From NCBI GenBank assembly GCA_035291345.1, contig DATDSF010000020.1:1-61439 (forward strand): a stretch of 61,439 nucleotides of DNA. The letters are read 5' to 3'. The first letter of the stretch is position 1. Each line of letters starts with the position of its first letter. Source of the stretch: Candidatus Nanoarchaeia archaeon (lineage in GTDB: Archaea; Nanobdellota; Nanobdellia; Pacearchaeales; GW2011-AR1). The position numbers and the translations under genes were made by a program. Positions 2,677-39,502 of the stretch are shown piece after piece. A model generated the notes under the pieces. The model was given only the letters and a program-made list of their open reading frames with translations. It was not told the DNA's origin and searched no databases.

Positions 2677-3135
2677 ATGCTTCCTAAAACTCATATAATT
2701 CTCGGCCTGGTATTTTCACTTATTTTATTTAATTTATTTCCAGAGATTGGTCTTTTAGGTTTTTTCACAATATTCATAGCTTCATTTATGATAGACATTG
2801 ATCATTATATTTTTTTTGTTTGGTTCAAGAAAAATCCAAGCCCAAAAGCAGCATTTTTATGGTTCATAACTAAAAACAAGTATTATCTTTCTTTACCTAC
2901 AATTGAAAGAAAAAAAGCTCCAACATCTCCATGTATCCTTCACGGATTGGAAGCTATAGTTATCTTATTAGCTCTTTCCTTGGTTAATAATTTTTTCTTT
3001 TTTATTTTAATAGGTTTTTTATTTCATGAAATACTTGACTTTATCAGTATAACTTATTACGGTTTTAGCTATAATCATATACTTTCTCAAACATATAATA
3101 TTTTAAACTTTAGAAAAGGCAATTATTCTGATTGA
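2677..3135 (+). CDS. Membrane-bound metal-dependent hydrolase-like protein (DUF457/YdjM-like)
   Basis: 152 aa, polytopic. N-terminus MLPKTHIILGLVF plus His/Asp motifs (DIDHY, LHG, FHE) are typical of DUF457. A paralog lies at 33763-34296. Confidence 0.5.
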   Translation: MLPKTHIILGLVFSLILFNLFPEIGLLGFFTIFIASFMIDIDHYIFFVWFKKNPSPKAAFLWFITKNKYYLSLPTIERKKAPTSPCILHGLEAIVILLALSLVNNFFFFILIGFLFHEILDFISITYYGFSYNHILSQTYNILNFRKGNYSD

Positions 3136-3137
3136 AA

Positions 3138-3902
3138 ATGAAACCCCTTAAAAAAAAGGTGTTTGTCTTTATCCTTTCATATAACCATAGAAAAACTATA
3201 ATCAGTTTACTTGAAAGAATACCAAAATCAATTTGGGATGGGTGTTATGAAATACTTATTGCAGATGATTGTTCTAAAGACGATACTTTTGAAAAAGCCA
3301 TGGAATATAAAGCGAAAAATAAGCTTAATAAGTTAACAATAATAAAACATAAACTAAACAAAGGGTATGGTGGAAATCAGAAATTTTGTTATAATTATGC
3401 TATTTCAAAAGGATATGATCTTGCAGTAATGGTTCATGGGGACTTACAATATCCTCCAGAATATATAGAATCTCTAGTTAAATTATTTGATAATGATAAA
3501 GTAGGAATGTCATTTGGTTCAAGAATATCTGGAAATCCAATAAAAGGAGGAATGCCCCTATATAAATTTCTTGGTAATGTTTTTTTAACAACTATTGAAA
3601 ATCTTGTATTACAAACCAGATTAACAGAATTTCATTCAGGATTTAGAGCATACTCAATGCAAGCATTAAAAGAAATTCCTTACAACAAAAATTCAGATGA
3701 TTTTCATTTTGACAGCGAAATAATAGTTCAAATGATACTGGCTGGAAAGAAAATAAGAGAAATATCAATACCAACACACTATGGAGATGAAAAATGTAAT
3801 GTTAATTCTGTAAAATACGGCTTTAATGTCTTAAAGGTAATGTCCCAGTATGTTTTACATAAAACAACTCTAAGAAACTTCGAGAAATTTAATATTAGAT
3901 AA
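3138..3902 (+). CDS. GT2 glycosyltransferase, dolichyl-phosphate-hexose synthase-like
   Basis: The ORF track starts at TTG 3132; ATG 3138 (MKPLKKK) is more likely. GT-A features: ILSYNH, IADDCSKDDT, HGDLQYPP (DxD-like), NKGYGGN. Confidence 0.75.
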   Translation: MKPLKKKVFVFILSYNHRKTIISLLERIPKSIWDGCYEILIADDCSKDDTFEKAMEYKAKNKLNKLTIIKHKLNKGYGGNQKFCYNYAISKGYDLAVMVHGDLQYPPEYIESLVKLFDNDKVGMSFGSRISGNPIKGGMPLYKFLGNVFLTTIENLVLQTRLTEFHSGFRAYSMQALKEIPYNKNSDDFHFDSEIIVQMILAGKKIREISIPTHYGDEKCNVNSVKYGFNVLKVMSQYVLHKTTLRNFEKFNIR

Positions 3903-3933
3903 ATTTATAAGTAATTATTCAACTATTTTTCAA

Positions 3934-4842
3934 ATGAAGTTATCAGATTGCAAAGTAGATTTTCATGTATCCGGGTGGATAAGTGAAGTAAAGCCAGAAA
4001 AAGGCTTTTCAAAAATACTAGCTGAATTAATAGAACCCCATCCAAAGACTCTTAAATATATTACAGATAATTTGTATTCTAGAAGCTCAAATAGAGTTGT
4101 ATTTTTACTTAATTATTTTCAACCAAAGTATGAAAGACTAAAAGGGCAAGCAATAAGTTTAACAAATCAAGGCTATGAAATTGATGATAATAACATAGAT
4201 ACCTTTATTGGAATAACCAATAACAGAAAAGATTGGATGTATTTAGTAAGAGGTTATGAAATTATGTCTGATAGAGGTCATGTGATTATTGCTGGTATTA
4301 AAGATGTATATCCATTTGAAAATTCTCATTACACATATGGTCCTAATTTAGAAAAAGTTTTAAGTTGGGCTACAAAGAAAGAAGCATTAACAATTCCTGC
4401 ACATCCATTACATACAAACTATTTAGAAAAATCATTACTAGCTTCTTTAGCCTTAGCAGGAAGAAGAGACCCTTCGGGGTTATCATTAGGATTATCTCAA
4501 GAAACTTTAGAAGAATTTAGAGATGATTTTGATGCAATTGAAGCTTTTAGTCTAAGTATATCTCCATCTCAATCAAGAAGAATAAGAGAATTTGCTAAGA
4601 AAATAGATAAACCAATTCTAGCTAATAGTGATGGAACTATAATGAGTGCATTCTCATCTTACAATGAGTTTGGATCAATAGATTTCACCTCTCCAGAATC
4701 TATGAGAGATAGTATAAGACAAGCATTACTTTCAAGAGAAAAAGTAAAGCCAATATATGTTCAGGAAACAGATGGATCTAGATTAAAGGAAAAAGTATTA
4801 CACTTCTTTATGAATTTTGTTCAAGAAAGAGAAAATTTTTAA
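3934..4842 (+). CDS. Hypothetical protein, degenerate PHP/metal-dependent phosphoesterase-like
   Basis: 302 aa, soluble. Motifs KVDFHVSG, TIPAHPLH, AIEAFS and NSDG resemble PHP-domain motifs with several His residues missing. Same motif order as the ORF at 32919-33728. Confidence 0.35.
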   Translation: MKLSDCKVDFHVSGWISEVKPEKGFSKILAELIEPHPKTLKYITDNLYSRSSNRVVFLLNYFQPKYERLKGQAISLTNQGYEIDDNNIDTFIGITNNRKDWMYLVRGYEIMSDRGHVIIAGIKDVYPFENSHYTYGPNLEKVLSWATKKEALTIPAHPLHTNYLEKSLLASLALAGRRDPSGLSLGLSQETLEEFRDDFDAIEAFSLSISPSQSRRIREFAKKIDKPILANSDGTIMSAFSSYNEFGSIDFTSPESMRDSIRQALLSREKVKPIYVQETDGSRLKEKVLHFFMNFVQERENF

Positions 4843-5585
4843 TTTTTCTCGGCAACATACATCATTATGCTTGTACTCTCTCTTGATGTAAAAAGCAATG
4901 ATATTTTTAGAATAATATATAAAATAAAATTAGCAAACATTATACTATGGAATTTGAATTTGTTTATTCTTTTGTTTTTATTCTTGTTTTTAATAAAATT
5001 TTTAACAATCGCTAATGTGAATTTTCTTTCAACTAAACTCCCGATTGGTTTTGATAATAGTATTGTAAAGCCCTTCTCCTTAAGATCAGTTTCTAATTGT
5101 TCTGGTTCAAATCTTCTATAGTGCTCTACAAATTCATCATCTACATTCCAGTATCTCTGATGTACTGGAACTGTTATAATTATTTTACCCTCTTTTTTCA
5201 AAACTCTATGTAATTCTTTCAGAGCTTTTTTATAATCTTTAATATGTTCTAAAACCTCAGAGCATAATATTACATCAAAATTATTGTTTCTAAACTTTAA
5301 TTTATTTATATTTCCAACTTCTGCCTTATAACCCCAAGAACTCATTATTTCAGCTGATTCAGGAGAAATATCGATATAAACTGTCTTTTTAGGCAATGGA
5401 GACACAGGAGAAATACCAGAGCCTATATCCATAATAGAAAAATCATTTTGTTTTAGTTTGTTTAAATCTGTAAATTTTAAAAAATATTTCTTTATTTGTT
5501 CCTTTCTATTTTTGTAATTAAATAAAGAATTCTTAATTTTAATATATGTTTTGTCTCTAAAAAATTCCCTAAATTTTTCTTCCAT
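4839..5585 (-). CDS. Class I SAM-dependent methyltransferase
   Basis: 248 aa with motif I IMDIGSGISP, a post-I acidic residue and DVILCSEVLEHI (Methyltransf_11-like). Hydrophobic C-terminal tail. Confidence 0.8.
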   Translation of the reverse strand: MEEKFREFFRDKTYIKIKNSLFNYKNRKEQIKKYFLKFTDLNKLKQNDFSIMDIGSGISPVSPLPKKTVYIDISPESAEIMSSWGYKAEVGNINKLKFRNNNFDVILCSEVLEHIKDYKKALKELHRVLKKEGKIIITVPVHQRYWNVDDEFVEHYRRFEPEQLETDLKEKGFTILLSKPIGSLVERKFTLAIVKNFIKNKNKNKRINKFKFHSIMFANFILYIILKISLLFTSRESTSIMMYVAEKN

Positions 5586-5662
5586 TTTATTATTGTTAAT
5601 TATTAATTTGTTATTAAGTTGTGTTTAAATAAGCTTATAAATTAGATGTTTTTAGTAGATAA

Positions 5663-7522
5663 ATGAATAGTGTAGAGGAAAAAAACCAAAAGAAAAGTTA
5701 TTGGAATAATACGACAAAACTGCTTTCTGATCTTATTTTCTCAAAAGACAAAAAAATTGAAAGATATTTAGTTTTAACAATTTTTGTTGGATTTATTTTA
5801 AGAATTATAGCTTCAATTAATTTAGATGTTTTTGCAGATGATATGGTTCATGTTTCCCAGAGTGCAGGTATTTTAACAGCTAAACTTCTTTCAACCCATT
5901 CAAATCCAGCTTTATTTTACTATTTAACAGACATTTCATTTAATATTTTTGGATATACTACTTTTGCATCTAGATTTTTTCCGTTAATAACTGGAACTTT
6001 GCTTATACCTTTAGCATTTCTTATAGGAACTTTAATTTTCAAAAATAAGAAAATAGGCCTTTTTGCAGCTTTAATGACTGCTCTTTCTCCATTTTTAATA
6101 AGGAATACCTTTGGAGAAGCGTCGTTAGTCGTTCTTTTCTTCTGTTTTTTTGGAGTTTATCTTGGTCTATTATATCTTAACACAAAAAAATATTTATACT
6201 TAATTCTTTCAGGAATACTTTTTGGTCTAGGCTTTTTAACAAAGTATAATGCCCCCTTCTTTATACTATCTTTTTTGATTTTTTCGCTTGTATTTTTATA
6301 TATTAAGAAAGAAAAAATAATAACTAAAAAAAATATAACTGCTTTAATTATTTTTCTAGCAATTATCTTTGTTTTTGTCATACCCCCTATAGCTTTTAAC
6401 TATCTTATTTACAAGGACAAAGGTATTACAGATGTTTACTTTAGTAGATTAATCCAGACAGAAAGAACTCAAGAGATTTATGGAGGATTAGCAGGACAGG
6501 AAAATAGCTTTATTGATAATCTTTTTAATTTAAGAAATTATAACAATTCTTATCTTTTATTTTTTGACGACCTAATAGTCTTAGTCTTTGGTGTAATCGG
6601 GCTTTTATTCCTAGCAGTAAGAAAAAAATATCTAGAGCTTTCTTTTTTTCTTATATTTTTACTAGTTCCGTTTATTCTTCAAAGTGCAGGAGCTCCTTTA
6701 GCTAAGCATTTTGTATTTATGTCTTTCTTGCTTGCTATTTCTTCTGGCCTTTTTGTTAATGAAATTTATAAAAAAATAAATAACAAAAAAATATTTTATC
6801 TTATTATAATTCTAGTATTTTTAGCAATGTTAGCCAATCTTACTGTTAATAATGGAACACCAAGATACTATTATCATACAAGCCCAACTTCAGAACTTAA
6901 ATCTTACCTGCATGATAACGTAAAACAATCTGATTTAGTAGTCTTTGACGCGAGAATTTATACTTCTAGAATGTTTTGGTTGGCAACACCAAATCATTTC
7001 ATTGATAGTTACAGATTTACATATTTTAATGAAGTAAATAATAACATATCAATAGAGCATAAAGTACCTCTAGATGTTTATTTTGTGGAGTGTGCTGTTG
7101 ATGATTGTGGCTGGGGGACTATAAAAGATCAACCTGATGTAAATACTACTTCAGAAGCATTTTTTTCATTTATTTCAGTAAATGTACCAATACATAAAAT
7201 AGTTGATTCAAAATACTATAATAATAACGAATTATTTGAAGATTCAGAAGAGATACCATTCTACAAAATTTATAAACAAACTCTTTACTTCAACCCATTA
7301 CTTATAGAACAGACAAATCAGATTAATACTTTTTACTTTGCACCTTACTTATACAATGATATGTCTAACTATCTTTATAACTATCATATAAACTCATTAC
7401 TGGATAGATTATTAGAAAAATTAGCTTACTTTATAATAATAATTTCAATCATTTTAACAATAATATCATTTATACTAGTCTTAATATTCTTAACATTATA
7501 TAACATACATAAATTAGAATAA
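5663..7522 (+). CDS. GT-C fold membrane glycosyltransferase (ArnT/PMT, GT39/GT83-like)
   Basis: 619 aa with more than 10 predicted TM segments. Early-loop acidic motif (VFADDMVHV). Large C-terminal soluble domain followed by a terminal TM. Confidence 0.65.
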   Translation: MNSVEEKNQKKSYWNNTTKLLSDLIFSKDKKIERYLVLTIFVGFILRIIASINLDVFADDMVHVSQSAGILTAKLLSTHSNPALFYYLTDISFNIFGYTTFASRFFPLITGTLLIPLAFLIGTLIFKNKKIGLFAALMTALSPFLIRNTFGEASLVVLFFCFFGVYLGLLYLNTKKYLYLILSGILFGLGFLTKYNAPFFILSFLIFSLVFLYIKKEKIITKKNITALIIFLAIIFVFVIPPIAFNYLIYKDKGITDVYFSRLIQTERTQEIYGGLAGQENSFIDNLFNLRNYNNSYLLFFDDLIVLVFGVIGLLFLAVRKKYLELSFFLIFLLVPFILQSAGAPLAKHFVFMSFLLAISSGLFVNEIYKKINNKKIFYLIIILVFLAMLANLTVNNGTPRYYYHTSPTSELKSYLHDNVKQSDLVVFDARIYTSRMFWLATPNHFIDSYRFTYFNEVNNNISIEHKVPLDVYFVECAVDDCGWGTIKDQPDVNTTSEAFFSFISVNVPIHKIVDSKYYNNNELFEDSEEIPFYKIYKQTLYFNPLLIEQTNQINTFYFAPYLYNDMSNYLYNYHINSLLDRLLEKLAYFIIIISIILTIISFILVLIFLTLYNIHKLE

Positions 7523-7527
7523 GGTAA

Positions 7528-8580
7528 TTATCTTAAATTATTAGATTTAAAATCTTGAAGAGAATCTAACAATTTAATAGCTACCTCTGTTTTTTCAATA
7601 TTTCCATTACATATATTTTTAACTAATTCCTGATTATAACTATAAATTTGCCCACCATATTCAAATCTAGCCATTTTATGGGAGAAGTTAGATTCCAAAT
7701 TTGTAGGATTCAACTTAACTTTTGGTTTTGAATGTTCCCTAAATATTACCTGTTCTAGAAGTTCGTCACTATTTACATAAAAATGACTGTTAACGATAAA
7801 ATAACTTGCTGCTAAATAATTTAGATAATCTTTTTCATTTAATCTAAATCTTAATTTATGAAATCTGTTTCTATCATTTAATTTTCTTAAAAATTTAAAA
7901 CGATCAAGAGAAAATATTTTTCTTGAAAACTTTCTTAAACCCTTTTTAATGCTTGTTTCATCGCTATATTTCTCTAATGAATTGTAAAGAATTGGATATT
8001 TTTCCAAAAAAGGATTAATAAACCTCATGATGTGTGGTCCGCCAGGTCCTAATGTATACTCCTCAAAATATTTTTTTTCATAGTTTACAAGTAATTTTAA
8101 ATCATTTTTCAGACCATAAAAGCATTCATCTGCCATATAAAAAGGTCGTGTTATTTCAAACCATGGTACCCATACCTTTGCTTTGAAAATATTTCCATTA
8201 GGTAGGTCTTCAGTTATTTCAAATAAATCTTTAGAAGTTATTATCTTTTTCAAAAAATCAGGATGTATATATACATCAGACCTAGTTTTTAATATAAAAT
8301 TATTACCTTTAATATTGCCTAAACCAACATCCAAGGCTTTCATCTGTTTCCATATATTTCCTTCCCCTCCAACTGCTGGTTCCTCACTTTCCATTATTAT
8401 TACATTCATATCCTTCATCAATTGATGTATTTCTGGATTTTTCTGAGGTTCCCCTTTCCATGTGGAAAAATATATGTTATTTACTAGGCCTTGTTTTTTT
8501 AGTTCACTTAGATCTTGAAGTGACTTTTTAAACAAATCAACAGTCCTAATCAGACCGCAAAATAAAATATCTATACTCAT
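7528..8580 (-). CDS. Hypothetical soluble protein (function unknown)
   Basis: 350-aa ORF with balanced composition that fills the whole gap between neighbouring genes. I recognise no family motif with confidence. Confidence 0.55.
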   Translation of the reverse strand: MSIDILFCGLIRTVDLFKKSLQDLSELKKQGLVNNIYFSTWKGEPQKNPEIHQLMKDMNVIIMESEEPAVGGEGNIWKQMKALDVGLGNIKGNNFILKTRSDVYIHPDFLKKIITSKDLFEITEDLPNGNIFKAKVWVPWFEITRPFYMADECFYGLKNDLKLLVNYEKKYFEEYTLGPGGPHIMRFINPFLEKYPILYNSLEKYSDETSIKKGLRKFSRKIFSLDRFKFLRKLNDRNRFHKLRFRLNEKDYLNYLAASYFIVNSHFYVNSDELLEQVIFREHSKPKVKLNPTNLESNFSHKMARFEYGGQIYSYNQELVKNICNGNIEKTEVAIKLLDSLQDFKSNNLR

Positions 8581-8619
8581 TTTTCCAATATACTTTTTAA
8601 ATTTTAACTATTTATATAC

Positions 8620-9207
8620 TTAATCGTTTAAAAAATCTAAAACTCTTCTTATATCATAAGGGTTTTTTACTTGGCATATTTTAGCTCCAGACTTATTTGC
8701 AGCCTCTAAACCAACAGGAGAATCTTCAACTATTAACACTTCATCTTTGTTTAGATTAAGCCTTTTTATAGCCTTTAAATACATTTCAGGATCAGGTTTT
8801 GGATTTAAAACCTCTTGATTTGATATTATAAATTCAAAACCCATAACTCCTCCATAGCTTAAAAGTAATTCAGTACTTTTTCTTATAGAATTACTACATA
8901 CTGCAAATGGTATTCCTTTTCTTTTTATTTCATTTATTACTTCTATAACCTCATTTATAGGTGTAATTGTTTCTGGAATCAGTTTAAATGTTATTTCTTG
9001 TTTCTCTGAATTTACCTTATCAATCATATCTTTATAAAAACCTAATTTTTCCAGTTTTTTCTTAGTAGGTAAACCATTAAGGTGATTCATATGGTATTCT
9101 TCATCTATTTCTCTGTAAGGTTTAACAGCTTCTAAAAATGCTTTCTCGTGAAGTTTTACAGCATCTACTAAAACACCATCTAAATCAAATAGTATTGCTT
9201 TTATCAT
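8620..9207 (-). CDS. HAD-superfamily hydrolase (beta-phosphoglucomutase-like subfamily IA)
   Basis: 195 aa with HAD motif I AILFDLDGVLVD, motif II CSNS and motif IV EDSPVGLEAA. Confidence 0.85.
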   Translation of the reverse strand: MIKAILFDLDGVLVDAVKLHEKAFLEAVKPYREIDEEYHMNHLNGLPTKKKLEKLGFYKDMIDKVNSEKQEITFKLIPETITPINEVIEVINEIKRKGIPFAVCSNSIRKSTELLLSYGGVMGFEFIISNQEVLNPKPDPEMYLKAIKRLNLNKDEVLIVEDSPVGLEAANKSGAKICQVKNPYDIRRVLDFLND

Positions 9208-9236
9208 TTCTAAATAGCTTAATTATAGTTAGTAAA

Positions 9237-10010
9237 TTATATTATTTCTATATTTGGAAAATTATGACTTATTTCTCCTCTTTTAAGAAATTCTAAGAAT
9301 TTTTGAGCATCATTAGGTGTTCCCAATCCGTGTACGAATCTCGGTCTTGAGAGTCTTATAGTCTTTCCTCTTCTTATCAGATAATTATAAACAGGAGCAA
9401 CATAAAATTCCCCATTTGTTCTATCATTTTCATCAATCATCTCTTCTGCAGCCCATACAAAATCTCTTCCCTTAGAAAAATAATAAGCACCTATATTAGC
9501 GTTCCGTGATATTTGAATTTTTTCAGCTGTTTCGGTAACAATTCCCTCAGAATCAGTTTTTGCAAAACTCCATTTAGGATTATTAGCATAAAATACTGGA
9601 ATTATTCCATCAACTTTTTCATAATTCTCTATATCTTTAAACAAGGTTTTTCCATCTATAAAATGATCAGAATCTGTAATTAAAAGGGGTTGATTGTTAT
9701 TAATAAATTCCCTAGCTAAAAGAGCAGTACATGCAGCTCCATCTGTTATATGATCTACAATTATTATTTTTATTTCGTTCCCAAAAATATTTCTAAGTTC
9801 TTCATCTATTTTAGATTTTTCAACATGATCTTTTAATACCAGAAATATAAGTTGATCTCCATTTTTTATTGGTAAAGAAGAAATCGCCCATTCAACCATG
9901 GGATGACCAGCTATATTTATAATTGGTTTAGGTTTTCTATATTCTGGATTCTTATCAGCTTCTACGAGGAATCTACTTCCTCTTCCAGCCATGGGAATAA
10001 GAATATTCAT
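9237..10010 (-). CDS. Sugar/alcohol-phosphate nucleotidyltransferase-like protein (GT-A fold NTP-transferase)
   Basis: The ORF track runs to 10172, but the first 54 codons look like open non-coding sequence. ATG at 10010 gives MNILIPMAGRGSRF, a G-x-G-x-R nucleotidyltransferase signature. Confidence 0.6.
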   Translation of the reverse strand: MNILIPMAGRGSRFLVEADKNPEYRKPKPIINIAGHPMVEWAISSLPIKNGDQLIFLVLKDHVEKSKIDEELRNIFGNEIKIIIVDHITDGAACTALLAREFINNNQPLLITDSDHFIDGKTLFKDIENYEKVDGIIPVFYANNPKWSFAKTDSEGIVTETAEKIQISRNANIGAYYFSKGRDFVWAAEEMIDENDRTNGEFYVAPVYNYLIRRGKTIRLSRPRFVHGLGTPNDAQKFLEFLKRGEISHNFPNIEII

Positions 10011-10206
10011 TTTTCTCTTTTTACCTTTTTCTCTTTTTATACAATTTGCAATGTTTGGTGTTTTATAAATATAATTACACAGAAGAAGATATTTAATCTC
10101 ATTAAAGTTAAGTAGTAAATTAACTTTCAGTAAATTACTAAAAATTATTTTACTATATCTTTTTGATAGCACATAATCTTTTAAATATTAATTCCTAAAA
10201 ACTAAT

Positions 10207-16112: not shown

Positions 16113-16216
16113 AACTTCTTTTTTATGCCTCTTATAATAAAAATCCTAGGAAGAAGTGATTTTTAAGATTTGTTATCCTCTAGAAATAAACTATAATGAC
16201 TACTTTGACTTAATGA

Positions 16217-18089: not shown

Positions 18090-18094
18090 AAATC

Positions 18095-27550: not shown

Positions 27551-27557
27551 TATTATA

Positions 27558-32039: not shown

Positions 32040-32061
32040 GATAAGGGATACTTCCCTTATC
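32040..32061. repeat. Perfect 9-bp inverted repeat with 4-nt loop (GATAAGGGA-TACT-TCCCTTATC)
   Basis: Relatively G+C-rich hairpin overlapping the stop codon of the Dol-P-hexose-synthase-like GT2 gene. Lies in the 63-nt gap before the next GT2 gene. Confidence 0.7.
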
Positions 32062-32821: not shown

Positions 32822-32918
32822 TTTAACATTATAGCTAAAAAATGATGATTTAAAGGTTTTTGTGTATTTTTATATTTACTACAGAAAATCTTATAAACAG
32901 AGCATAATTTGGTTTTTT

Positions 32919-33728
32919 ATGGTAGATAACTATGCACTAACTTTTGTAAAAGCTGATTTACACAATTATCTTAGAACAAGCAATATATTTTCAGAAGGAT
33001 TTGCTGAAAAAGCTTTAGAAAGAGCAAGTAAAAAATTAGGTAAAGGAGCAGTTATAGGAGTTGCAGATGTTGACGAACATAGGTACTCAAAGGTAAAAAG
33101 AGGAGTAGAAAATTATTTAACACACGACTTAGGGGTAGGGTTTTGTGTGTTGGGACTGGATATAACAGTATTAAGGGGTGAAAGAGTTTTTACAAAAGAA
33201 GGAAATATACTTGTTTTAGGTTTAAATGAAGATGAACATGTTCAAAGCGGAAGAAGTATAGAAGATACTTTAAAACAGGCAAAGGATTATAATGCATCAA
33301 TAGTACTGAGTAATTTTTCATCTAGAAATAAATCAAGAGAAGTTATACTCACAAATTTAAATCTCTTAACTTATGTAGATGCAGTTGAAGTGCATAATGG
33401 TTCTCAGGTATTTACAGATCAGAATAATACAGCCCAGTTATTTTATGAAGTTTATAGAAATAAGTTCGATATAGGAGCTATTATTACCTCTGGAGGCCAC
33501 TCGGGTTATGAAATAGGCTCTAGTTGGACATTGATCCCTACTCTGGACTATACATCAGAAGCTCATTTAAAAAAATCTATAAAAGAAGTTTTAAAACAAA
33601 GAAGAACTCCTGAAATGGAGCATAGAAGCAATTCATATATTGGAGCTACTCACCATTTAGTTAAACACTATTTATGGAGCAAGCAGGCTGGAAAAAGAAA
33701 AATTGACGAAAGAGGAATGGCAGAATAA
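32919..33728 (+). CDS. Hypothetical protein, PHP/metal-dependent phosphoesterase-like
   Basis: The ORF track starts at GTG 32862; ATG 32919 (MVDNYALTF) is more likely. Motifs VKADLHNY, DAVEVHNGS and TSGGHSGYE resemble PHP motifs. Same motif order as the ORF at 3934-4842. Confidence 0.4.
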   Translation: MVDNYALTFVKADLHNYLRTSNIFSEGFAEKALERASKKLGKGAVIGVADVDEHRYSKVKRGVENYLTHDLGVGFCVLGLDITVLRGERVFTKEGNILVLGLNEDEHVQSGRSIEDTLKQAKDYNASIVLSNFSSRNKSREVILTNLNLLTYVDAVEVHNGSQVFTDQNNTAQLFYEVYRNKFDIGAIITSGGHSGYEIGSSWTLIPTLDYTSEAHLKKSIKEVLKQRRTPEMEHRSNSYIGATHHLVKHYLWSKQAGKRKIDERGMAE

Positions 33729-33762: not shown

Positions 33763-34296
33763 ATGCCCTTAGCAGTAACTCACTTTGTTATAACAGTAAT
33801 TATATTTACACTAATTAGGGACTTTTTTATAAAGAATAAGAAAAAGTTTCCAGTTTACTATGTTTTTCTTGGAGGGTTGGCAGGACTTTTGCCAGATTTT
33901 GATTTCGCAATTTCTATATTGCTATTTATCTTTAGCATAAACTATAATGCTCACAGAACATTTACACATACTTTATTTATGCCTTTGATATTTTTTATAG
34001 CTTCAGTAGTCACAATAAAATTAAAGCCATTTAAAATAAAAACAAAAATATTTCATTATACTACTTTGTTATGGGTAATTGGTTTAGGTATTTTAATTCA
34101 CTTAATTCTTGATTCTACAATAGGTGGATATATTTATCCCCTTTATCCTATTAGTAATATATCTCTAGGCTTGAACTTTCCAGATTACCTTCCAGATAAA
34201 CTTATAGAAGTATTTTTTCCAATTTTAGATGCAGCACTTTTAATTATATGGATATCTTATTTGGAGTTTAAACATAAAATAAGTTCTTTCTTCTAA
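33763..34296 (+). CDS. Membrane-bound metal-dependent hydrolase-like protein (DUF457/YdjM-like)
   Basis: 177 aa, polytopic, with MPLAVTHFVI, LPDFD, HRTFTHT and HLILDS. Paralog of the ORF at 2677-3135. Confidence 0.5.
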   Translation: MPLAVTHFVITVIIFTLIRDFFIKNKKKFPVYYVFLGGLAGLLPDFDFAISILLFIFSINYNAHRTFTHTLFMPLIFFIASVVTIKLKPFKIKTKIFHYTTLLWVIGLGILIHLILDSTIGGYIYPLYPISNISLGLNFPDYLPDKLIEVFFPILDAALLIIWISYLEFKHKISSFF

Positions 34297-35564
34297 GCTT
34301 TTTTATTAGCTTCATCTGGCTTTTTCAACAGAATTAGCATACTCCCTAAGAATAAAAGTAAGCATGATATAATCATACCAATTGAAAAGTTTAATAAATT
34401 ATCCTTTAAGAACCAGAGCAATACAGCCTGAATAAATACAAAAATGATGAATGATGCAAGATATTTAATTCCAATTTTTTTATTAATAGAAAGTCCATAA
34501 AGTAAAATTATATTTGCAACAGAAATGAATGTAAATGCAACTCCAATATTAAAAACAATACTGCTTATTTCAAGATATTCGTTACCAAACAATAATCTGA
34601 TTATTAAATCAGGGAATAATAATAGAGCAATTAAAGATAATCCGCATAAGCTTAGAACCATAATTAAAGACTTATAGAAAATCTTCCTTGTTTTACTATT
34701 ATCACTACCTGAATTTTCAAACTTTTCAGAGCTTAAAGGAAACATTGTTTTTCCTATAGCTAGAGTTCCGAAGAAAATCATCTTTCCAATTAAATTAGCA
34801 ACTGCATAATGGCCTGCAATCTCTGGAGAAAAAAATCTTCTGGCAAGGAAAACATCAATGCTTTGCATTAATAATATTGGTAGAAAAATAATTATTACTG
34901 GTGATCCATATTTGTATATTCCTGATAAATCAGCACTTTCAATTTTACTTTTCATAACATCTTTTAACGGAATTAAAGATATTGATAGTGCTACAAGTCC
35001 ACCAATAATGATACTTCCAACTGCAGCATAAACTCCAAAACCAAGATAAACCAATATCACGGCTATTACGACTTTTATCAAAGAATCTAAAATCATATTA
35101 CTACCAAGAGCACCAAACTTCTTCATTCCCTGCATAACTCCTCTTGTGGTAGGTATAAGGAAGAATGAAAACAAAACAACACCTGATAGAGCAACTAAAC
35201 TGAAAGGTATATCTAAAAAATAACCAAACAAAAAGAAAATAGGCAAAAGGAGAATAAAAAGTATTAAAGCTACTAAACTGCTCTTTTTTAAAGATTTAAT
35301 CAATAGATTTTTTATTTTCCCATTTTCTTTTTTAACATTGAACTTTGAAGTATATCTTGATACTATTGTCTGTATACTTTCAGATGGTAAAGCTAAGAAA
35401 TAAAGAAGAGTCATTATTGATGCTAAAACACTAAAATCAGCAGGTCCTAACATTCTAGCCATTGAAAATTGGAAAATGAAATTAAGAAGGTTAAATATGT
35501 TAAATGTAATGAAAAGAATCAAACTACCTCTCATTAATTCATTGGAAAATATCTTTTTGATCAT
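34293..35564 (-). CDS. MOP-superfamily oligosaccharide flippase
   Basis: 423 aa with about 12 TM segments. Separated by 1 nt from the upstream GPT gene, in the aglB operon. Confidence 0.72.
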   Translation of the reverse strand: MIKKIFSNELMRGSLILFITFNIFNLLNFIFQFSMARMLGPADFSVLASIMTLLYFLALPSESIQTIVSRYTSKFNVKKENGKIKNLLIKSLKKSSLVALILFILLLPIFFLFGYFLDIPFSLVALSGVVLFSFFLIPTTRGVMQGMKKFGALGSNMILDSLIKVVIAVILVYLGFGVYAAVGSIIIGGLVALSISLIPLKDVMKSKIESADLSGIYKYGSPVIIIFLPILLMQSIDVFLARRFFSPEIAGHYAVANLIGKMIFFGTLAIGKTMFPLSSEKFENSGSDNSKTRKIFYKSLIMVLSLCGLSLIALLLFPDLIIRLLFGNEYLEISSIVFNIGVAFTFISVANIILLYGLSINKKIGIKYLASFIIFVFIQAVLLWFLKDNLLNFSIGMIISCLLLFLGSMLILLKKPDEANKKA

Positions 35565-35565
35565 T

Positions 35566-36570
35566 TTATTTTAAGAATACTAAAAAACCGATTACAATTA
35601 AAATAAGCTGAAATATGTTGATTAACATTACAACTTCCCATTCGTAAGCTTTCTTAGATTTTTTAATTTTTTCAAGAATTAAAATAGCTAGATGTTCAAG
35701 ACCATAAATTTTACTATATTGATTTTTTATAGATCCATCTTTTTGAGGTTTTCCAAAAGAAGATTTCTTTAATTTTCCTCTTAATTTTAGAATTGTTTCT
35801 AAAATATAAGGCATAAATATAAACAACGCAAACATTTCATAATTCCCAAGTATAGCCATAATTGCTATTAATGCTCCTATACTATATGTTAAAATATCTC
35901 CTGGAAAAACTCTTGCGGGGAATTTATTATAATATAAAAATCCAACTAAAGAAAAGACCATACACATAGAAATTAAGCTTAACCATGTACTTCCTGTAAT
36001 AAAAGAAGCTAATGAAAGAGATGATAAAATTATTATGCCCTGGCTAGCTTCCAGTCCATTATAACCTGCCAGAAAATTAAATGTTGTAGATGCTCCAATA
36101 ATGCCTATTGGAATAAATATCAATGGATATATAATACCAAGAGAAATCTGACCTATAAATGGAATATAAATTACATGATTTCCAGCATTTATTACCATCA
36201 AAGGTATTGCTGCAAATGCAATTAATACTAATCTTGACCAAACAGACAACCCTCCTTTCTGCCAGCCAAAAAGATCATCTATTAACCCTACCCCTCCAAC
36301 AATTAACACAACTGATAAAAGGGAAAAAATTTCAACTATATTCTCCGATGAGTTTAAATAAAAAGTTTTAATGGCAATATACAACAAAACTCCTAGTACA
36401 AATCCAAGAACAACAATAATTCCTCCAGAACCAGCAACTTTTTCAGCTTTGGTCTTATTCATATCATCCCAAATTAAACCTATTTCCTTAGCTTTTTTTA
36501 TCCAGAAAGGAATTAAAAATACAGTTGTAGCTAGAGAAATAATAAATGACAAAATTAAAAGCGGTTCCAT
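35566..36570 (-). CDS. Polyprenyl-phosphate HexNAc-1-phosphate transferase (MraY/WecA/Alg7 family, AglH-like)
   Basis: 334 aa, polytopic, with GLIDDLFGW (DDxxG motif), NFLAGYNGLE and FPGDILTYSIG. Confidence 0.8.
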   Translation of the reverse strand: MEPLLILSFIISLATTVFLIPFWIKKAKEIGLIWDDMNKTKAEKVAGSGGIIVVLGFVLGVLLYIAIKTFYLNSSENIVEIFSLLSVVLIVGGVGLIDDLFGWQKGGLSVWSRLVLIAFAAIPLMVINAGNHVIYIPFIGQISLGIIYPLIFIPIGIIGASTTFNFLAGYNGLEASQGIIILSSLSLASFITGSTWLSLISMCMVFSLVGFLYYNKFPARVFPGDILTYSIGALIAIMAILGNYEMFALFIFMPYILETILKLRGKLKKSSFGKPQKDGSIKNQYSKIYGLEHLAILILEKIKKSKKAYEWEVVMLINIFQLILIVIGFLVFLK

Positions 36571-36600
36571 ATAACTTAATATTAAATCTGTTTTAAAAAC

Positions 36601-39372
36601 TTACCTGCCAACTTCTTTAAGTTTTTCGTCAGGGTATTCTGTAACTAGGTAATCTGGATTAAACTTTATATTTTGGGGGTAATTTATTTCCCATATTTTA
36701 ATAGGACCAAGGAAACTTCCTTGGTAATAAACAAAGTCATCTAATTCTAAGCCTTGGTTTCTTAAATCAGCAATAATTAAATTCGGTTCGCTGTGAACAA
36801 GCTTAAAATTTCCTTCTTCTTCAAATAAATATTTTCTTACAAGTAAACCATCAACAGTTCTTTCACTTAAGAAAAGAAGAGCCCCTTTATCATTAACTTG
36901 GATTTGATTGTTACTTTGTTGAATTGTTTCAACGATAAACACTCCTGAATTAAGACCTGTGTTGAAGTTATATAGCTTATTCTTATAATAGAGATATTTT
37001 AGTGGGATATTAACCTGAGTCCCATCTCTTTGAATGAAAATAATTTCAGGCTGTTTTAATATTGAATTATTATTCTCAATTATTTCATCAATTACAAAAC
37101 CACCTATTACAGATGTTTCTTTAGCAAAGAATGTTTTTGTTCCATTTTCTTCCCATATTATATCATCATCAAGTCCCGACCCTCCAGTATATACGTAAGA
37201 AAGTCCATTAGAAGTCTCTCTAGTTCCACGAGCATCCATAACAAAAGTAGGGATATAACTAAGTCTATCATAATTTTCATCAGATCCAATACTACTAAAT
37301 GCAGAATATTTACCTATGTCAGTGGAATCTATAAGTAAATGTGTTGAATTATGAGTATAAAGAAACTCTAAGGCTGTTCTATCATCAGGAGTTGTTAAAA
37401 CATGCCTCCCCATAAGGTAATTCCAATAAACAATAGCATTACCTCCATCTAAAACAGTCGCCCTTTTTCCTATACTCTGTACCCAATAACCATAATCCCA
37501 CCAATGTGCAAATACAGCGTCTTCTTCAGTATTGTTTCTTACCCAGTCCATGGCTTTCTGCCACTGCCAATTATATACTGAAGGATAAAATCCACTAGCC
37601 TGAGACTTACTATAGTTATAAAAACTAAACGCACTAAACAAAGCAGCCAAAACAACAATAATCGCTAAAATTATAGCAATTATTTTATTTGTTTCATCTT
37701 TTTTATTTTTTACACTTAAAACACTTGATACTACAAAATAACCAACAATTGCACTTGTTGGGGGAACAAGCATCATAATAAATCTAACTCCACTTCTTGC
37801 AGCTAAAATACTTACAAAAAACAAAGTGAAAATAACTATATATCCAAAATCAATCTTAAGACCTTCTTTATAACTATTTTTGTTATATTTATATAATAAA
37901 AATAAAGACCATCCAAGGAATAAGATTATACCTCCAAAATACACCATAAGACTTAAACCACTTTCCCCATTTAACTGGCTATTTGGAGAATATTTACTTA
38001 ACATTAAGCAAATAATAGAAATAAAATAAACTAATGTTAAAGAAATTCTATCCTTAAACTCAAATTTCTTTATCATATTGTAGAATAAGAAACATGAACC
38101 TATAATAAACAGCCAGAAATATAAAGCTATTTTTGCTAAAACAGGCCCAAAACTACCTGTTAATTCACTGAAATACGGCTGTCTGTTTTCAGCAACTGTA
38201 ACTGTAAATCTATTAGCACTTAAAGGTTTTAATAAAGCTGTAAAAGCATCATTAATCTGATAGGAAATAAAATCTATACCAAATATTAATATTGATAAGA
38301 TTACTCCAATTAAACCAATTAAAACTAAAGATGTTATCTGTCTTGGTATTTTATACTTATCATTTATTTTCTTGAATATTGTAATTTTATCATATAAAAA
38401 TAAATCAAATGCAATCAATAAAATTAAAGCAAATATAGGGATTGTGGTTGTTGATGTTAAAAGATTGTATAAACTATATCTTGTTGAAAATATCATAGCA
38501 ATAGGAGCGAATAAAATAACCCATGAAAAATACCCTACAAATCTTTTTTTATCTATAAGACCTAACATAAAAAATACAAATACTGAGAGGCTGATTGTAG
38601 CAAAAACAAATGTTACCCCTCCCCATATCAATCCAAGTAATGCTGTGGAAATCCCTGCCAATCCTCCAAATATTCCGGATTTTAGGTAATCTTTTGACTT
38701 AAAAGAACATATAAAAAAATACAAAACAAGAAATATAAACAAGAAACCTGCAGCTTCTTTTTCAGGTATTCCTGCAATTGTTCTTGGTAAAATTTCAGGC
38801 AATATAGCTAAAAATAATGTAGATATTAAAGCAATGGTACTAGAAGCATATTTATTTTCAAAACTATTTTCAAATATTTTTCTTACAAGAAAAAAGAAAG
38901 CAATACAAGTAAGTGCAAACATAAAAACAGGGAAAATTATAGCGGCATAAGTTATACTAACTTCACTATTAAAAATAGAAAGAATCTGATAAAACCATGC
39001 AATTAAGTAAGACAATAATTTCCCCTCACCAGCAGTATTATATCCTAATGGGATATATCTCATATTGTCAATAATCATTAACTTACCATGTTCAACAATA
39101 TATTCTGCCCATCTTAAAAATAAAAATGGGTCTAAGTCAGGTCCAAGCGTCCAGGTACCAGTTGTTATATCTTTAAGGTTGTTTATATTTCGTGTTCTTA
39201 TAAAAACAGCAATAAATGTGATAAACGCAAGTATAATGTATATGATTATATTCCAGAAATAACTAATTTTAATTTTGAAAACACTCGCTAATTTTTCTTT
39301 TCTTTTCTCAACTATTTCTTTTGCTTCTTTTTCATCTGTTGTATGTTTTTCACTAGATTCACTCATCTTCAC
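36601..39372 (-). CDS. aglB: Archaeal oligosaccharyltransferase AglB (STT3 family)
   Basis: 923 aa with 13 or so N-terminal TM segments. First-loop acidic motif GPDLDPFLF and the catalytic signature HWWDYGYWV. Start is either GTG 39372 or ATG 39366. Confidence 0.93.
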   Translation of the reverse strand: MKMSESSEKHTTDEKEAKEIVEKRKEKLASVFKIKISYFWNIIIYIILAFITFIAVFIRTRNINNLKDITTGTWTLGPDLDPFLFLRWAEYIVEHGKLMIIDNMRYIPLGYNTAGEGKLLSYLIAWFYQILSIFNSEVSITYAAIIFPVFMFALTCIAFFFLVRKIFENSFENKYASSTIALISTLFLAILPEILPRTIAGIPEKEAAGFLFIFLVLYFFICSFKSKDYLKSGIFGGLAGISTALLGLIWGGVTFVFATISLSVFVFFMLGLIDKKRFVGYFSWVILFAPIAMIFSTRYSLYNLLTSTTTIPIFALILLIAFDLFLYDKITIFKKINDKYKIPRQITSLVLIGLIGVILSILIFGIDFISYQINDAFTALLKPLSANRFTVTVAENRQPYFSELTGSFGPVLAKIALYFWLFIIGSCFLFYNMIKKFEFKDRISLTLVYFISIICLMLSKYSPNSQLNGESGLSLMVYFGGIILFLGWSLFLLYKYNKNSYKEGLKIDFGYIVIFTLFFVSILAARSGVRFIMMLVPPTSAIVGYFVVSSVLSVKNKKDETNKIIAIILAIIVVLAALFSAFSFYNYSKSQASGFYPSVYNWQWQKAMDWVRNNTEEDAVFAHWWDYGYWVQSIGKRATVLDGGNAIVYWNYLMGRHVLTTPDDRTALEFLYTHNSTHLLIDSTDIGKYSAFSSIGSDENYDRLSYIPTFVMDARGTRETSNGLSYVYTGGSGLDDDIIWEENGTKTFFAKETSVIGGFVIDEIIENNNSILKQPEIIFIQRDGTQVNIPLKYLYYKNKLYNFNTGLNSGVFIVETIQQSNNQIQVNDKGALLFLSERTVDGLLVRKYLFEEEGNFKLVHSEPNLIIADLRNQGLELDDFVYYQGSFLGPIKIWEINYPQNIKFNPDYLVTEYPDEKLKEVGR

Positions 39373-39502
39373 TTAACAAGTCCGCAGCACTTTTTTCAAA
39401 TTCAACGCCTTTACTTTCACCACAATTTGGGCAAACTCTTGGAAGGCCGTTGCTGAAGGTGTTTGCAGAGTAGTTACATCTTTTACATCTGAATTTTGCC
39501 AT
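39359..39502 (-). CDS. Small Zn-ribbon protein (47 aa), not in the ORF track
   Basis: My translation is MAKFRCKRCNYSANTFSNGLPRVCPNCGESKGVEFEKSAADLLSEDE, with CxxC-x14-CxxC and an acidic tail. Its TGA stop overlaps the aglB ATG (ATGAGTGA). A TATA-like element lies upstream. Confidence 0.6.
   Translation of the reverse strand: MAKFRCKRCNYSANTFSNGLPRVCPNCGESKGVEFEKSAADLLSEDE

Follow-up and report, generated by a model that had tools for sequence, protein, structure and literature searches.

A probable native surface-glycan locus with conserved ends and a variable center, anchored by aglB, in a groundwater pacearchaeon

Introduction

Gene clusters that are anchored by the oligosaccharyltransferase gene aglB and vary in the rest of their content are already well known in archaea. 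In the agl cluster of Haloferax volcanii (aglJ...aglB...aglM, HVO_1517-1531) and in its second, variable cluster Agl5-15, the oligosaccharyltransferase gene is accompanied by genes for glycosyltransferases (GTs), a flippase, a methyltransferase and enzymes of sugar-nucleotide metabolism. Archaeal N-glycans with sulfate, with methyl groups and with a deoxyhexose have each been documented (PMC11407970, PMC3871713), and haloarchaeal agl clusters are variable between close relatives (PMC11407970, PMC5867893). Here, we analyzed a stretch of 61,439 nucleotides, called the window below, of contig DATDSF010000020.1 (GenBank assembly GCA_035291345.1), from a Candidatus Nanoarchaeia archaeon placed in the Pacearchaeales. 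A block of 36,696 bp (positions 2677-39372, 59.7% of the window), which begins after secD and ends with aglB, is rich in glycan-related genes; we call it the island. It is an aglB-anchored variable glycosylation cluster of the known type, here in DPANN/Pacearchaeota. We propose that it is quite probably a native surface-glycan locus, serving mainly protein N-glycosylation in groundwater Candidatus Pacearchaeota, with a fixed site, conserved ends and a center that is rapidly exchanged.

The island resembles the Hfx. volcanii clusters in its types of genes and in the serotype-like differences in content between close relatives. Methyl, sulfate and 6-deoxyhexose, which the haloarchaeal glycans can bear, are also what the island genes would predict. 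It differs in belonging to a DPANN archaeon whose genome is probably smaller than 1 Mb, in its length of about 37 kb, in its fixed position between secFD and a SecY/ribosomal block, in the Alg7-like gene that adjoins aglB, and in that its AglB and Alg7-like proteins are closer to eukaryotic STT3 and DPAGT1. It is also set apart by GT9 enzymes, by a perosamine module and by a fused C-methyltransferase, none of them reported in a characterized Agl pathway. A first-pass annotation of the window had stated that no characterized Agl pathway combines the activities encoded here. This is probably literally true, but it is a weak distinction, as every characterized archaeal glycan differs and sulfate, methyl and deoxyhexose are each known.

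Precedents also exist for glycan assembly on the outer membrane face. In Haloferax, AglD, AglR and AglS mediate outer-face extension via dolichyl phosphate (Dol-P)-hexose (PMC3871713), and purified Agl23 of the Agl22/Agl23 pair of Haloarcula hispanica translocates a lipid-linked oligosaccharide (PMC11182771). The island similarly pairs a GT2 enzyme resembling Dol-P-mannose synthase (DPMS) with a polytopic PMT/ArnT-like protein, with a MOP-type flippase nearby. It departs from both systems in having two GT-C genes, in an Agl23 score of 39.6 against a cut-off of 126, and in the lack of a membrane anchor in the GT2.

Bacterial O-antigen and capsule loci share with the island conserved flanks, a replaceable center, a Wzx flippase, and genes for GDP-perosamine synthesis (Gmd and Per) and a Gmm-type NUDIX hydrolase. 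The latter are classic O-antigen and colanic-acid content. Unlike those loci, the island belongs to an archaeon, and we found in it neither a Wzy polymerase nor a ligase or chain-length regulator; its acceptor is probably protein, via AglB. A further precedent concerns C-methylated sugars: for the virenose of Coxiella burnetii, a route from GDP-mannose to a 3-C-methyl-6-deoxyhexose via Gmd, methylation and reduction has been proposed (PMC3539893). We found no published description of glycosylation in DPANN or Pacearchaeota, and the DPANN papers mentioning Pacearchaeota that we examined contained no glycosylation terms. To our knowledge, no DPANN glycosylation pathway has been characterized.

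Results

Open reading frame (ORF) translations were annotated by Pfam and NCBIfam profile scans with curated cut-offs. The island comprises 35 non-overlapping ORFs of at least 80 amino acids (aa) in the ORF listing, is 97.7% coding, and switches strand 11 times, versus once in the block from SpoIIM to the ribosomal protein gene L3. Carbohydrate-specific families were matched by 20 of the 35 ORFs, and 8 more matched generic but compatible families (methyltransferases, HAD, NUDIX, nucleotidyltransferase, GDPD and cupin), for a total of 28. The remainder are one YdjM-type membrane protein and six ORFs without a family. None of the 32 scanned flank ORFs matched a glycan family; they encode SecF and SecD, ribosomal proteins, SUI1, SecY, a YidC/EMC3-like protein, prefoldin, eIF2B, SpoIIM, transporters and a nucleoside-phosphorylase-like protein. 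Fisher's exact test gave p = 5e-8 (strict count) and 7e-13 (broad count), with the flanks entered as 33 ORFs, including a 91-aa ORF left unscanned.

The island encodes AglB, a PF00953 polyprenyl-phosphate N-acetylhexosamine (HexNAc)-1-phosphate transferase (GPT), two Polysacc_synt (MOP) flippases, five stand-alone GT2s, a GT4, a GT9, a GT9::GT2 fusion, two PMT_2-type GT-C proteins, a sulfotransferase, a CE4 deacetylase, a GDP-mannose 4,6-dehydratase (GMD) and a DegT aminotransferase, along with four methyltransferase domains (Methyltransf_11, Methyltransf_25, FkbM and a TylC3-type C-methyltransferase). Every enzyme named in the first-pass annotation was thereby recovered, and most ORFs fell into glycan families. 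Its count of 36 consecutive ORFs corresponds to the 35 large ones plus a 47-aa ORF at 39359-39502, and its description of a block that is almost all glycan-related, changes strand repeatedly and fills about 60% of the window agrees with the figures above.

The ends of this block are conserved. On one side lie SecF (51-1145) and SecD (1138-2670, + strand; Pfam SecD_SecF_C and PDZ), which is not glycan machinery and forms the left anchor; on the other side a SpoIIM-family membrane protein (39575-40441, - strand; Pfam SpoIIM, 61 bits) forms the right anchor and is followed by eIF2B, prefoldin, a YidC-like protein, SecY and the ribosomal block. From a scan of one genome per GTDB species, which found at least 503 relatives, we examined the best 80 loci and mapped their ORFs to the window proteins. 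The series SpoIIM-AglB-GPT-(flippase)-GT2 was near-universal in these 80 species-level relatives, with SpoIIM within 1.5 kb upstream of aglB in 65 of 70 loci and SecY less than 10 kb from aglB in 29 of 49. Beyond this core, the gene sets vary by genome and include GT-C, GT4, GT9::GT2, CE4, methyltransferase and B12-radical-SAM genes. At the other end, we considered 22 metagenome loci in which 9 kb or more is available downstream of SecD; in 19 of them, this stretch contains homologues of island genes (Gmd in 11, flippase in 11, GT-C in 6 and DegT in 6). The interval from secD to aglB measures 36.7 kb in the window, 38.1 kb in JBAZWF010000001.1 and 41.6 kb in Ga0209202_1000025, with the same relative orientation; for these two relatives with both anchors, the comparison covered all but the central 15-20 kb. 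Protein-export genes thus bracket the island (SecF/SecD at 51-2670; YidC/EMC3-like, SecY and the ribosomal operon within 39575-55826), an arrangement kept in relatives.

Toward the center, the island becomes a mosaic. In the closest relative (L093, from the Hainich aquifer), amino acid identity declines from the anchors inward: 84-89% for SecF, SecD and SpoIIM (SecD, 89%), 79% for the 256-aa GT2 and DegT, 75-77% for GPT, the 423-aa flippase and the core GT2s, 69% for AglB, 53-54% for both GT-C proteins, 52% for the methyltransferase at 4839-5585 and 47% for the 508-aa flippase. Within its readable parts, the 302-aa ORF, a 3.9-kb run at 7528-11387 (350-aa ORF, HAD, NTP-transferase, cupin and GDPD), the 308-aa GT2 and the FkbM gene are without counterpart. 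Genes present there instead encode a GT34 enzyme, different methyltransferases, a B12-radical-SAM enzyme (next to its GT-C gene) and a double fusion of short-chain dehydrogenase/reductase (SDR) domains. The secD and aglB ends are therefore conserved around a variable cassette, as the first-pass annotation had suggested a comparison of relatives might show.

Relatives also carry genes that the window lacks. The islands of L011, L012, L007 and L009 contain E1_dh/transketolase-like small subunits and many B12-binding/SPASM radical-SAM enzymes, and that of L010 has an HldE-like kinase/nucleotidyltransferase fusion (CTP_transf+PfkB, 17648-19174). These extra enzymes point to other unusual sugar modifications in the lineage. 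In L007, an inserted DDE_3 transposase (8368-9366) separates SpoIIM from aglB, and SecY has a ParE/RHH toxin-antitoxin pair (3231-3952) nearby; the same stretch of L009 has an intein-bearing (LAGLIDADG) RadA/Rad51 gene (5334-8327).

The island is native and not recently foreign. Island and flank genes do not differ in G+C content (0.288 versus 0.295, p = 0.33) or in G+C at third codon positions (GC3; 0.181 versus 0.185, p = 0.77), and their synonymous codon fractions correlate at r = 0.995, so that the G+C and codon-usage check proposed with the first-pass annotation gave no deviation. Scans for tRNAs, Rfam families and repeats found no tRNA, integrase, insertion sequence (IS) element or bounding repeat, whether within the island or next to it. 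The same layout occurs in 80 of 80 species-level Pacearchaeota loci, and the description of the enzyme set as unusual for an archaeon was not upheld. Homologues of AglB and SecD at 50-89% identity are labeled Candidatus Pacearchaeota, Nanoarchaeota or Woesearchaeota, which places the organism among DPANN archaea of the Pacearchaeota type.

Proteins identical to the GPT and Gmd of the window were found on 22-23 contigs (NCBI GCA_036745955.1, ENA groundwater metagenomes, JGI and Logan). Because 12 loci from independent samples are colinear with window positions 4985-46570 at 99.87-99.99% nucleotide identity, the island is not a chimera. Three independent contigs end at about 4845-5125, in or beside the Methyltransf_11 gene and next to the 302-aa ORF that the closest relative lacks, which may mark a strain-level breakpoint. 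The records of L022 (DAOTCN010000002.1) and of the proteins P0015 and P0131 bear the NCBI label "Candidatus Paceibacterota bacterium," yet have archaeal L32e, L19e and AglB and the same synteny; the bacterial label looks like a mix-up of Pacearchaeota and Paceibacterota.

The conserved core begins with AglB (36601-39372, - strand), which matched Pfam STT3 (49 bits) and STT3-PglB_core (24.4 bits), both above cut-off. Its likely start is the ATG at 39366, giving 921 aa with 14 hydrophobic segments. The motif HWWDYGYW at residues 621-628 is invariant in 12 homologues and aligns to WWDYGY of human STT3B; GPDLDPF, GIPEKE and TVAENRQP are likewise invariant in the family alignment, the first two aligning to DPW and DNE of STT3B and the third being assigned to loop 5 by eye. 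A DxxK motif (D680-S-T-D-I-G-K686), a candidate for the DK or MI motif expected after WWDYG, is conserved in the comparison within the family. A profile of the family scored eukaryotic STT3A/B at about 66 bits versus about 38 bits for Pyrococcus AglB fragments, and Archaeoglobus fulgidus AglB was absent among its matches.

The GPT gene (35566-36570, - strand; PF00953, 105 bits; AglH/Alg7-like) directly follows aglB in 67 of 77 loci. Because the protein is closer to human DPAGT1, its best match in the Protein Data Bank (PDB; 73 bits), than to MraY (36 bits), we infer a Dol-PP-HexNAc start, like that of eukaryotes and crenarchaea. Next come a MOP/Wzx-type flippase of 423 aa (34293-35564, - strand; Polysacc_synt_3, 59 bits), a core member with a homologue within 5 kb of aglB in 39 of 59 loci, and a short DPMS/GtrB-like GT2 of 253 aa (32060-32821, - strand; GT2, 103 bits), with a homologue within 5 kb downstream of aglB in 49 of 59 species-level loci. 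The latter matches Pyrococcus furiosus Dol-P-Man synthase (5mlz, 46 bits) best among PDB entries, and also GtrB (38 bits). Since it has no GT-C partner and belongs to the AglB-GPT-flippase core, a role in the core or in initiation, as a glycosyltransferase of the lipid-linked stage comparable to AglJ/AglK, is the more likely one; it could be a second-step transferase. Two further GT2s, of 324 aa (29994-30968, - strand) and 343 aa (30965-31996, - strand), both assigned by Pfam, are 75-77% identical in the closest relative and are carried by only some of the others.

Upstream of aglB, a 47-aa ORF (39359-39502, - strand) overlaps its start by 14 nucleotides and encodes a CxxC...CxxC zinc-ribbon peptide (MAKFRCKRCNY...CPNCGE...SAADLL). 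Peptides of the form CxxC...CxxC...acidic tail precede aglB in 28-31 of 77 species-level loci, versus 1.4-3.8 expected from random pieces of the same loci, and the counterpart in L008 weakly matches Pfam Zn_ribbon_8. This micro-protein may be an AglB accessory factor.

Near the middle of the island lies a sugar-nucleotide module. Its stand-alone Gmd (14985-16112, - strand) scored 530 bits against TIGR01472 (equivalog cut-off, 415) and has an intact active site (SSSEMFG and PYACAK, with the catalytic S-x-E, Y and K), making it a bona fide Gmd like the Escherichia coli enzyme (1db3). The adjoining pyridoxal phosphate-dependent aminotransferase (13906-14976, - strand; Pfam DegT, 339 bits) resembles GDP-perosamine synthase: its best PDB match is Caulobacter perosamine synthetase (3bn1/3dr4, 273 bits; next, 217 bits). 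Its best NCBIfam match is the LegC family, below cut-off; no curated perosamine model exists. Gmd and Per form the classic two-step GDP-perosamine route, and the two genes would direct GDP-perosamine synthesis. The GDP-sugar module reported by the first-pass annotation is thus present and has, in addition, a C-methyl branch.

This branch centers on a fusion protein of 732 aa (18095-20293, - strand; Pfam Methyltransf_13/14 and GDP_Man_Dehyd). Residues 1-395 form an NDP-hexose 3-C-methyltransferase of the TylC3/TcaB9 type, with its Zn-binding N-terminal, S-adenosylmethionine (SAM) and C-terminal domains (PF08421, PF13489 and PF08484) all above cut-off and a full-length match to TcaB9 (4rv9, 138 bits, residues 5-392). 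Residues 405-732 form a GMD paralogue, in which FFQPLSSTMFG replaces FYQASTSELYG of E. coli GMD, so that Thr stands in place of Glu135 (HMMER alignment, also with the Arabidopsis and Aquifex enzymes); the NAD(P) motif, Ser and Tyr-x3-Lys are retained. In E. coli GMD, Glu135 is reportedly required for dehydration (Somoza et al. 2000). Because this catalytic Glu is replaced, the fused domain is probably not a dehydratase; TIGR01472 gave 324 bits, under the cut-off of 415. We propose that the fusion performs C-methylation and 4-ketoreduction. An assignment of the fused domain as a reductase of the RMD type was rejected, as it scored 292 bits with GMD (1n7g; range against GMDs, 260-293) versus 82 bits with RMD (2pk3); a reductase function, if present, would have evolved independently of RMD.

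In 31 of 50 fusion homologues, which are those nearest to the window, the catalytic Glu site is occupied by Thr or Asn; the other 19, distant and of the Patescibacteria type, keep Glu. A stand-alone GMD accompanies every Glu-less fusion with a visible neighborhood (the window and other contigs), and in other genomes the fusion sits with stand-alone GMD, DegT, GT9 and sulfur-activation genes. Compared with TylC3/TcaB9 and the Coxiella route, which likewise is proposed to derive a C-methyl-6-deoxyhexose from GDP-mannose, the island differs in the fusion of the methyltransferase to a Glu-less GMD-derived SDR domain and in the links of the methyltransferase, elsewhere, to NUDIX and nucleotidyltransferase domains. 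The sole long internal DNA repeat of the window (16008-16126 versus 18971-19089; 119 nucleotides, 77% identity) consists of the 5' ends of the two GMD-type coding regions, which fits paralogy and not mobile DNA.

Related architectures (P0241-P0360) include C-methyltransferase::NUDIX and C-methyltransferase::CTP_transf_like fusions and a 1102-aa protein with two NUDIX domains, a C-methyltransferase and a GMD. The island has a small nucleotidyltransferase of the CTP_transf_like family (17143-17622, - strand; Pfam, 62 bits), similar to RfaE domain II and TagD (rfaE_dom_II, 80.6, cut-off 181) and 76% identical to the C-terminal domain of one such fusion (P0283), and a NUDIX hydrolase resembling GDP-mannose mannosyl hydrolase (17631-18098, - strand; Pfam, 56 bits; PRK15434, 51 bits, below cut-off), 52% identical to the NUDIX domain of another (P0286). 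Because they are fused to the same methyltransferase in other genomes, both belong to the C-methyl module, where they may hydrolyze the GDP-sugar and re-activate the sugar. Between Gmd and these genes, a 294-aa ORF (16217-17101, - strand) without a Pfam or NCBIfam match has a degenerate Nudix-like box by eye.

A GT9-family glycosyltransferase (20372-21550, - strand; PF01075, 73 bits) neighbors the fusion in the window, and a GT9 gene also adjoins it on an unrelated contig. All heptosyltransferase equivalogs scored below cut-off (e.g., 80 versus 134.6 bits), and neither GmhA nor a PfkB kinase is encoded in the window, so that an ADP-heptose reading of the GT9 and the RfaE-domain-II-like gene was rejected; it is further weakened because the fusions tie the small nucleotidyltransferase to the C-methyltransferase instead. 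The GT9 may use the product of the C-methyl module rather than heptose. A second GT9 domain is part of the GT9::GT2 fusion (25634-27550, + strand; Pfam GT9, 53 bits, and GT2), which is 71% identical in L008 and lies beside the 530-aa GT-C gene in both L007 and L008. This fusion is lineage-restricted, with two full-length representatives among 1.84 billion cluster representatives; its halves are usually separate proteins.

Candidates for outer-face steps lie in both halves of the island. A GT2 of 256 aa (3132-3902, + strand; Pfam GT2), similar to polyprenyl-phosphate hexose synthases (DPMS/AglJ/Agl22/ArnC-like), has DPMS (5mlz, over residues 8-221) and then ArnC as its best PDB matches. It scored below the NCBIfam cut-offs for AglJ (55.7 versus 325), Dol-P hexose transferase (37.7 versus 375) and ArnC. 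The nearby 619-aa GT-C-fold membrane protein (5663-7522, + strand; PMT_2, 56 bits; PMT, 32 bits; 11 hydrophobic segments) has Agl23 (TIGR03663, 39.6 bits, cut-off 126) as its best curated match. The 256-aa GT2 adjoins a PMT_2 protein of 620-640 aa in the window, in L010, L011 and L093 and in several other loci, a gene context that makes a role as a Dol-P-hexose synthase plausible. Using the Dol-P-sugar, the 619-aa protein could be a transferase or an Agl23-like flippase, both possible from its sequence. The second GT-C-fold protein, of 530 aa (27558-29150, + strand; PMT_2, 55 bits; 10 hydrophobic segments), has homologues less than 10 kb from aglB in many relatives.

These data support in part the earlier proposal of two Dol-P-hexose synthases serving two GT-C enzymes: the 256-aa GT2 and the 619-aa GT-C protein form a conserved pair with archaeal precedents, but the 253-aa GT2 is a core member unpaired with a GT-C. 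Likewise, the assignment of the GT-C proteins as ArnT/PMT-like holds for the PMT_2 family; their role as transferases is uncertain, the best match of the 619-aa protein being the flippase-associated Agl23, below cut-off.

The remaining genes add transport, transfer and tailoring functions. A second MOP/Wzx-type flippase of 508 aa (11446-12972, + strand; Polysacc_synt, 124 bits, and MurJ; 14 hydrophobic segments) is below cut-off for the NCBIfam MOP flippase. A GT2 of 308 aa (12969-13895, - strand; 84 bits) has a GT34-family gene in its place in the closest relative, and a GT4 (24515-25633, + strand; Glycos_transf_1, 111 bits; Agl16, 96 bits, cut-off 575) has a 51% identical homologue in L008. 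The carbohydrate sulfotransferase (21973-22872, - strand; Sulfotransfer_1, 66 bits; PDB 3rnl, 101 bits), of the type using 3'-phosphoadenosine 5'-phosphosulfate (PAPS), also matches heparan-sulfate 3-O-sulfotransferases, and its GAARSGTT and SLREPVSRAYS align to PAPS-binding motifs; in another genome, an APS-kinase/CysQ-like gene lies near the C-methyltransferase::GMD fusion. It is followed by a CE4 polysaccharide deacetylase (22931-23725, + strand; Polysacc_deac_1, 86 bits) and a SAM methyltransferase of the Methyltransf_25 class (23703-24476, + strand; Pfam). The FkbM-family methyltransferase (29151-29993, - strand; Methyltransf_21, 69 bits; TIGR01444, 98 bits, above 37.7) is replaced by a different methyltransferase in relatives. 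That of the Methyltransf_11 class (4839-5585, - strand; Pfam) has the 52% identical counterpart noted above.

An enzyme of the HAD-IA phosphatase/beta-phosphoglucomutase family (8620-9207, - strand; HAD_2, 120 bits; NCBIfam beta-PGM, 104, cut-off 153) is predicted to handle sugar-phosphates. It neighbors an NTP_transferase gene (9237-10172, - strand; Pfam, 31 bits) for a sugar-1-phosphate nucleotidyltransferase-like protein containing MNILIPMAGRGSRF. As listed, this ORF has a GTG start and a Lys/Leu-rich extension of 54 residues; because the family alignments begin at residues 55-58 (MNILIPMAGRGSRF), the true start is probably Met55. A small cupin (10207-10530, + strand; Cupin_2, E = 3e-4, below cut-off) and a glycerophosphodiester phosphodiesterase-family protein (10527-11387, - strand; GDPD, 39.7 bits) lie next in the island.

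The six ORFs without a family encode proteins of 152, 302, 350, 294, 122 and 288 aa and gave marginal matches only in relaxed Pfam/NCBIfam scans; by hydrophobic-segment analysis, none is polytopic. The 152-aa ORF (2677-3135, + strand), with two transmembrane segments and weak similarity to YdjM (Pfam, E = 0.012 only), has a homologue directly after SecD in half of the 36 loci compared (18) and also in the relatives L010, L011 and L093. The 302-aa ORF (3934-4842, + strand) shows weak similarity to CehA/McbA (PHP-like) metallohydrolases (NF038032, E = 2e-5, below cut-off), and no paralogy to the 288-aa ORF (32862-33728, + strand; no family; 33% homologue in the closest relative) was detectable. 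The soluble 350-aa protein (7528-8580, - strand) matches Pfam Galactosyl_T very weakly (E = 0.042 only) and is absent from the readable parts of the closest relative. The 122-aa protein (21560-21928, - strand) is weakly similar to DUF6165 (E = 0.002, below cut-off); ORFs of 122 and 133 aa occur in the equivalent module of another contig. The YdjM-family membrane protein lies at 33763-34296 (+ strand; 61 bits). Outside the island, a SUI1/eIF1 gene (50611-50910, - strand) lies within the ribosomal operon, and a Glycos_trans_3N/PYNP_C protein (57721-59235, + strand), which is AMP/nucleoside phosphorylase-like and non-glycan, lies past the ribosomal block.

Discussion

We propose that the island encodes a pathway that would begin at the cytoplasmic face, where the Alg7/AglH-like GPT (35566-36570) would load HexNAc-1-P onto dolichyl phosphate; instead, or also, the 253-aa GT2 would make a Dol-P-sugar as AglJ/AglK do. 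The soluble GT2, GT4, GT9 and GT9::GT2 enzymes would extend the lipid-linked glycan, using nucleotide sugars made by the island. One of these would be GDP-perosamine, from Gmd and the Per-like aminotransferase. The other would be a GDP-3-C-methyl-6-deoxyhexose: Gmd would give the 4-keto intermediate (GDP-4-keto-6-deoxymannose), the TylC3-like domain would methylate C3, and the fused GMD paralogue, devoid of the dehydratase Glu but keeping Ser, Tyr and Lys, would reduce C4. Three SAM methyltransferases, the PAPS-type sulfotransferase and the CE4 deacetylase would tailor the glycan, the two Wzx-like flippases would carry lipid-linked glycans outward, and AglB would pass the glycan to Asn of secreted proteins. 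In addition, the 256-aa GT2 would make Dol-P-hexose, which the 619-aa GT-C protein would flip or use outside, the 530-aa protein probably acting likewise; such outer-face steps would extend N-glycans or add O-linked sugars. The first-pass annotation had envisaged elaborate N- and possibly O-linked glycans. Of this, N-glycosylation is supported, and the aminated, C-/O-methylated and sulfated 6-deoxyhexoses are what the enzyme families predict.

Several points weigh against this proposal. All substrates and linkages are deduced from sequence, six island ORFs have no assigned family, and most of the specific NCBIfam matches (AglJ, Agl16, Agl23, heptosyltransferases, RfaE domain II and Gmm) are under their cut-offs. 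Neither the 256-aa nor the 253-aa GT2 has a transmembrane segment, whereas P. furiosus DPMS, GtrB and ArnC have a membrane anchor. The GT-C proteins have no PDB sequence match and may be flippase-like rather than transferases, and the ketoreductase role of the Glu-less GMD domain is suggested by one residue and by context. No gene for PAPS or GDP-mannose synthesis was identified with confidence in the window. Finally, relatives were read to 10 kb on each side of the anchors, and the variable middle was compared directly in few genomes.

Much of the island, namely its secD-proximal and central parts with the GT9, the GT9::GT2 fusion, the second flippase, CE4, GDPD and the GT-C proteins, might build a glycoconjugate not linked to protein, such as an exopolysaccharide, a capsule-like layer or a glycolipid/lipoglycan, leaving only the AglB-GPT-flippase-GT2 core to N-glycosylation. 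Two separate Wzx-type flippases would suit two lipid-linked products; GT9s are classically transferases of the lipid core of lipopolysaccharide; GDPD and the TagD/RfaE-like nucleotidyltransferase recall teichoic-acid-type chemistry; near-universality is limited to the aglB-proximal genes; and haloarchaeal sulfated exopolysaccharides are made with DPMS-like GT2s (PMC9943897). However, we found neither a Wzy-type polymerase or chain-length regulator nor an O-antigen-ligase-like protein or ABC exporter in the 35 ORFs, and none of the ORFs without a family is polytopic. In relatives, the interval as a whole stays between secFD and aglB, and Haloferax has two coexisting N-glycan pathways, each with its own flippase (PMC3871713). 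We therefore regard this division of the island as unlikely, and N-glycosylation as its main function remains the favored explanation.

The bacterial appearance of the GT9, TylC3-like, perosamine and sulfotransferase genes and the strand switches would also be explained if the block were a horizontally acquired genomic island, e.g., from bacteria. The families GT9, Per, TylC3-type and CE4 are most familiar from bacteria, class-2 C-methyltransferase::GMD fusions occur in Patescibacteria, gene content is mosaic between close relatives, and one relative has a transposase between SpoIIM and aglB. Such an origin is nevertheless very unlikely given that G+C, GC3 and codon use are indistinguishable from those of the flanks and that no tRNA, integrase, IS element or flanking repeat was found; moreover, the same site is occupied across the lineage by orthologues 45-89% identical. 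Site and composition together argue that any transfers were old or were cassette exchanges within the lineage, not one recent import. Least credible of all is an assembly chimera or incidental clustering, a concern raised by the metagenomic origin of the contig and the three independent contigs that break at about 4.85-5.1 kb. It is countered by the 12 colinear loci, which come from independent samples and assemblers and are 99.87-99.99% identical, by the glycan-family enrichment (p about 1e-8 or less), and by the closest relative, which has the same gene order (SecD, 152-aa ORF, GT2, methyltransferase, GT-C, flippase, DegT) across the break region.

A broader reading, which we put forward only tentatively and hold to be doubtful, would extend to Pacearchaeota and related DPANN archaea. 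They would combine a fixed hypervariable "serotype" locus, set between Sec-pathway genes, with a so far undescribed GDP-sugar route using a 4-ketoreductase fusion and with a zinc-ribbon AglB accessory factor. The NUDIX and nucleotidyltransferase enzymes would possibly re-activate the sugar on another nucleotide, C-methyl and amino 6-deoxyhexoses would feed GT9s that are not heptosyltransferases, and the micro-protein would apparently be translationally coupled to aglB.

Apparently undescribed features of the island are its fixed position between Sec-pathway genes, the family of Glu-less GMD::C-methyltransferase fusions, the lineage-restricted GT9::GT2 fusion, its size relative to a reduced genome, and the zinc-ribbon micro-ORF that overlaps the start of aglB. 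The Glu-less GMD domain fused to a C-methyltransferase, and GT9s in an archaeon with no heptose pathway visible in the window, are leads at the enzyme level. With its fixed position and variable content, the locus lends itself to the study of surface types by population genomics and to glycoproteomics guided by metagenomes.

Attachment to other cells is the presumed lifestyle of DPANN archaea, which makes their surface the interface with hosts and viruses. Because the 38-kb island of one relative amounts to about 4% of its 857-kb contig, a reduced genome appears to invest heavily in surface glycans. On the tentative broader reading above, a serotype-like locus would diversify these glycans, with consequences for attachment to hosts or for the evasion of viruses.

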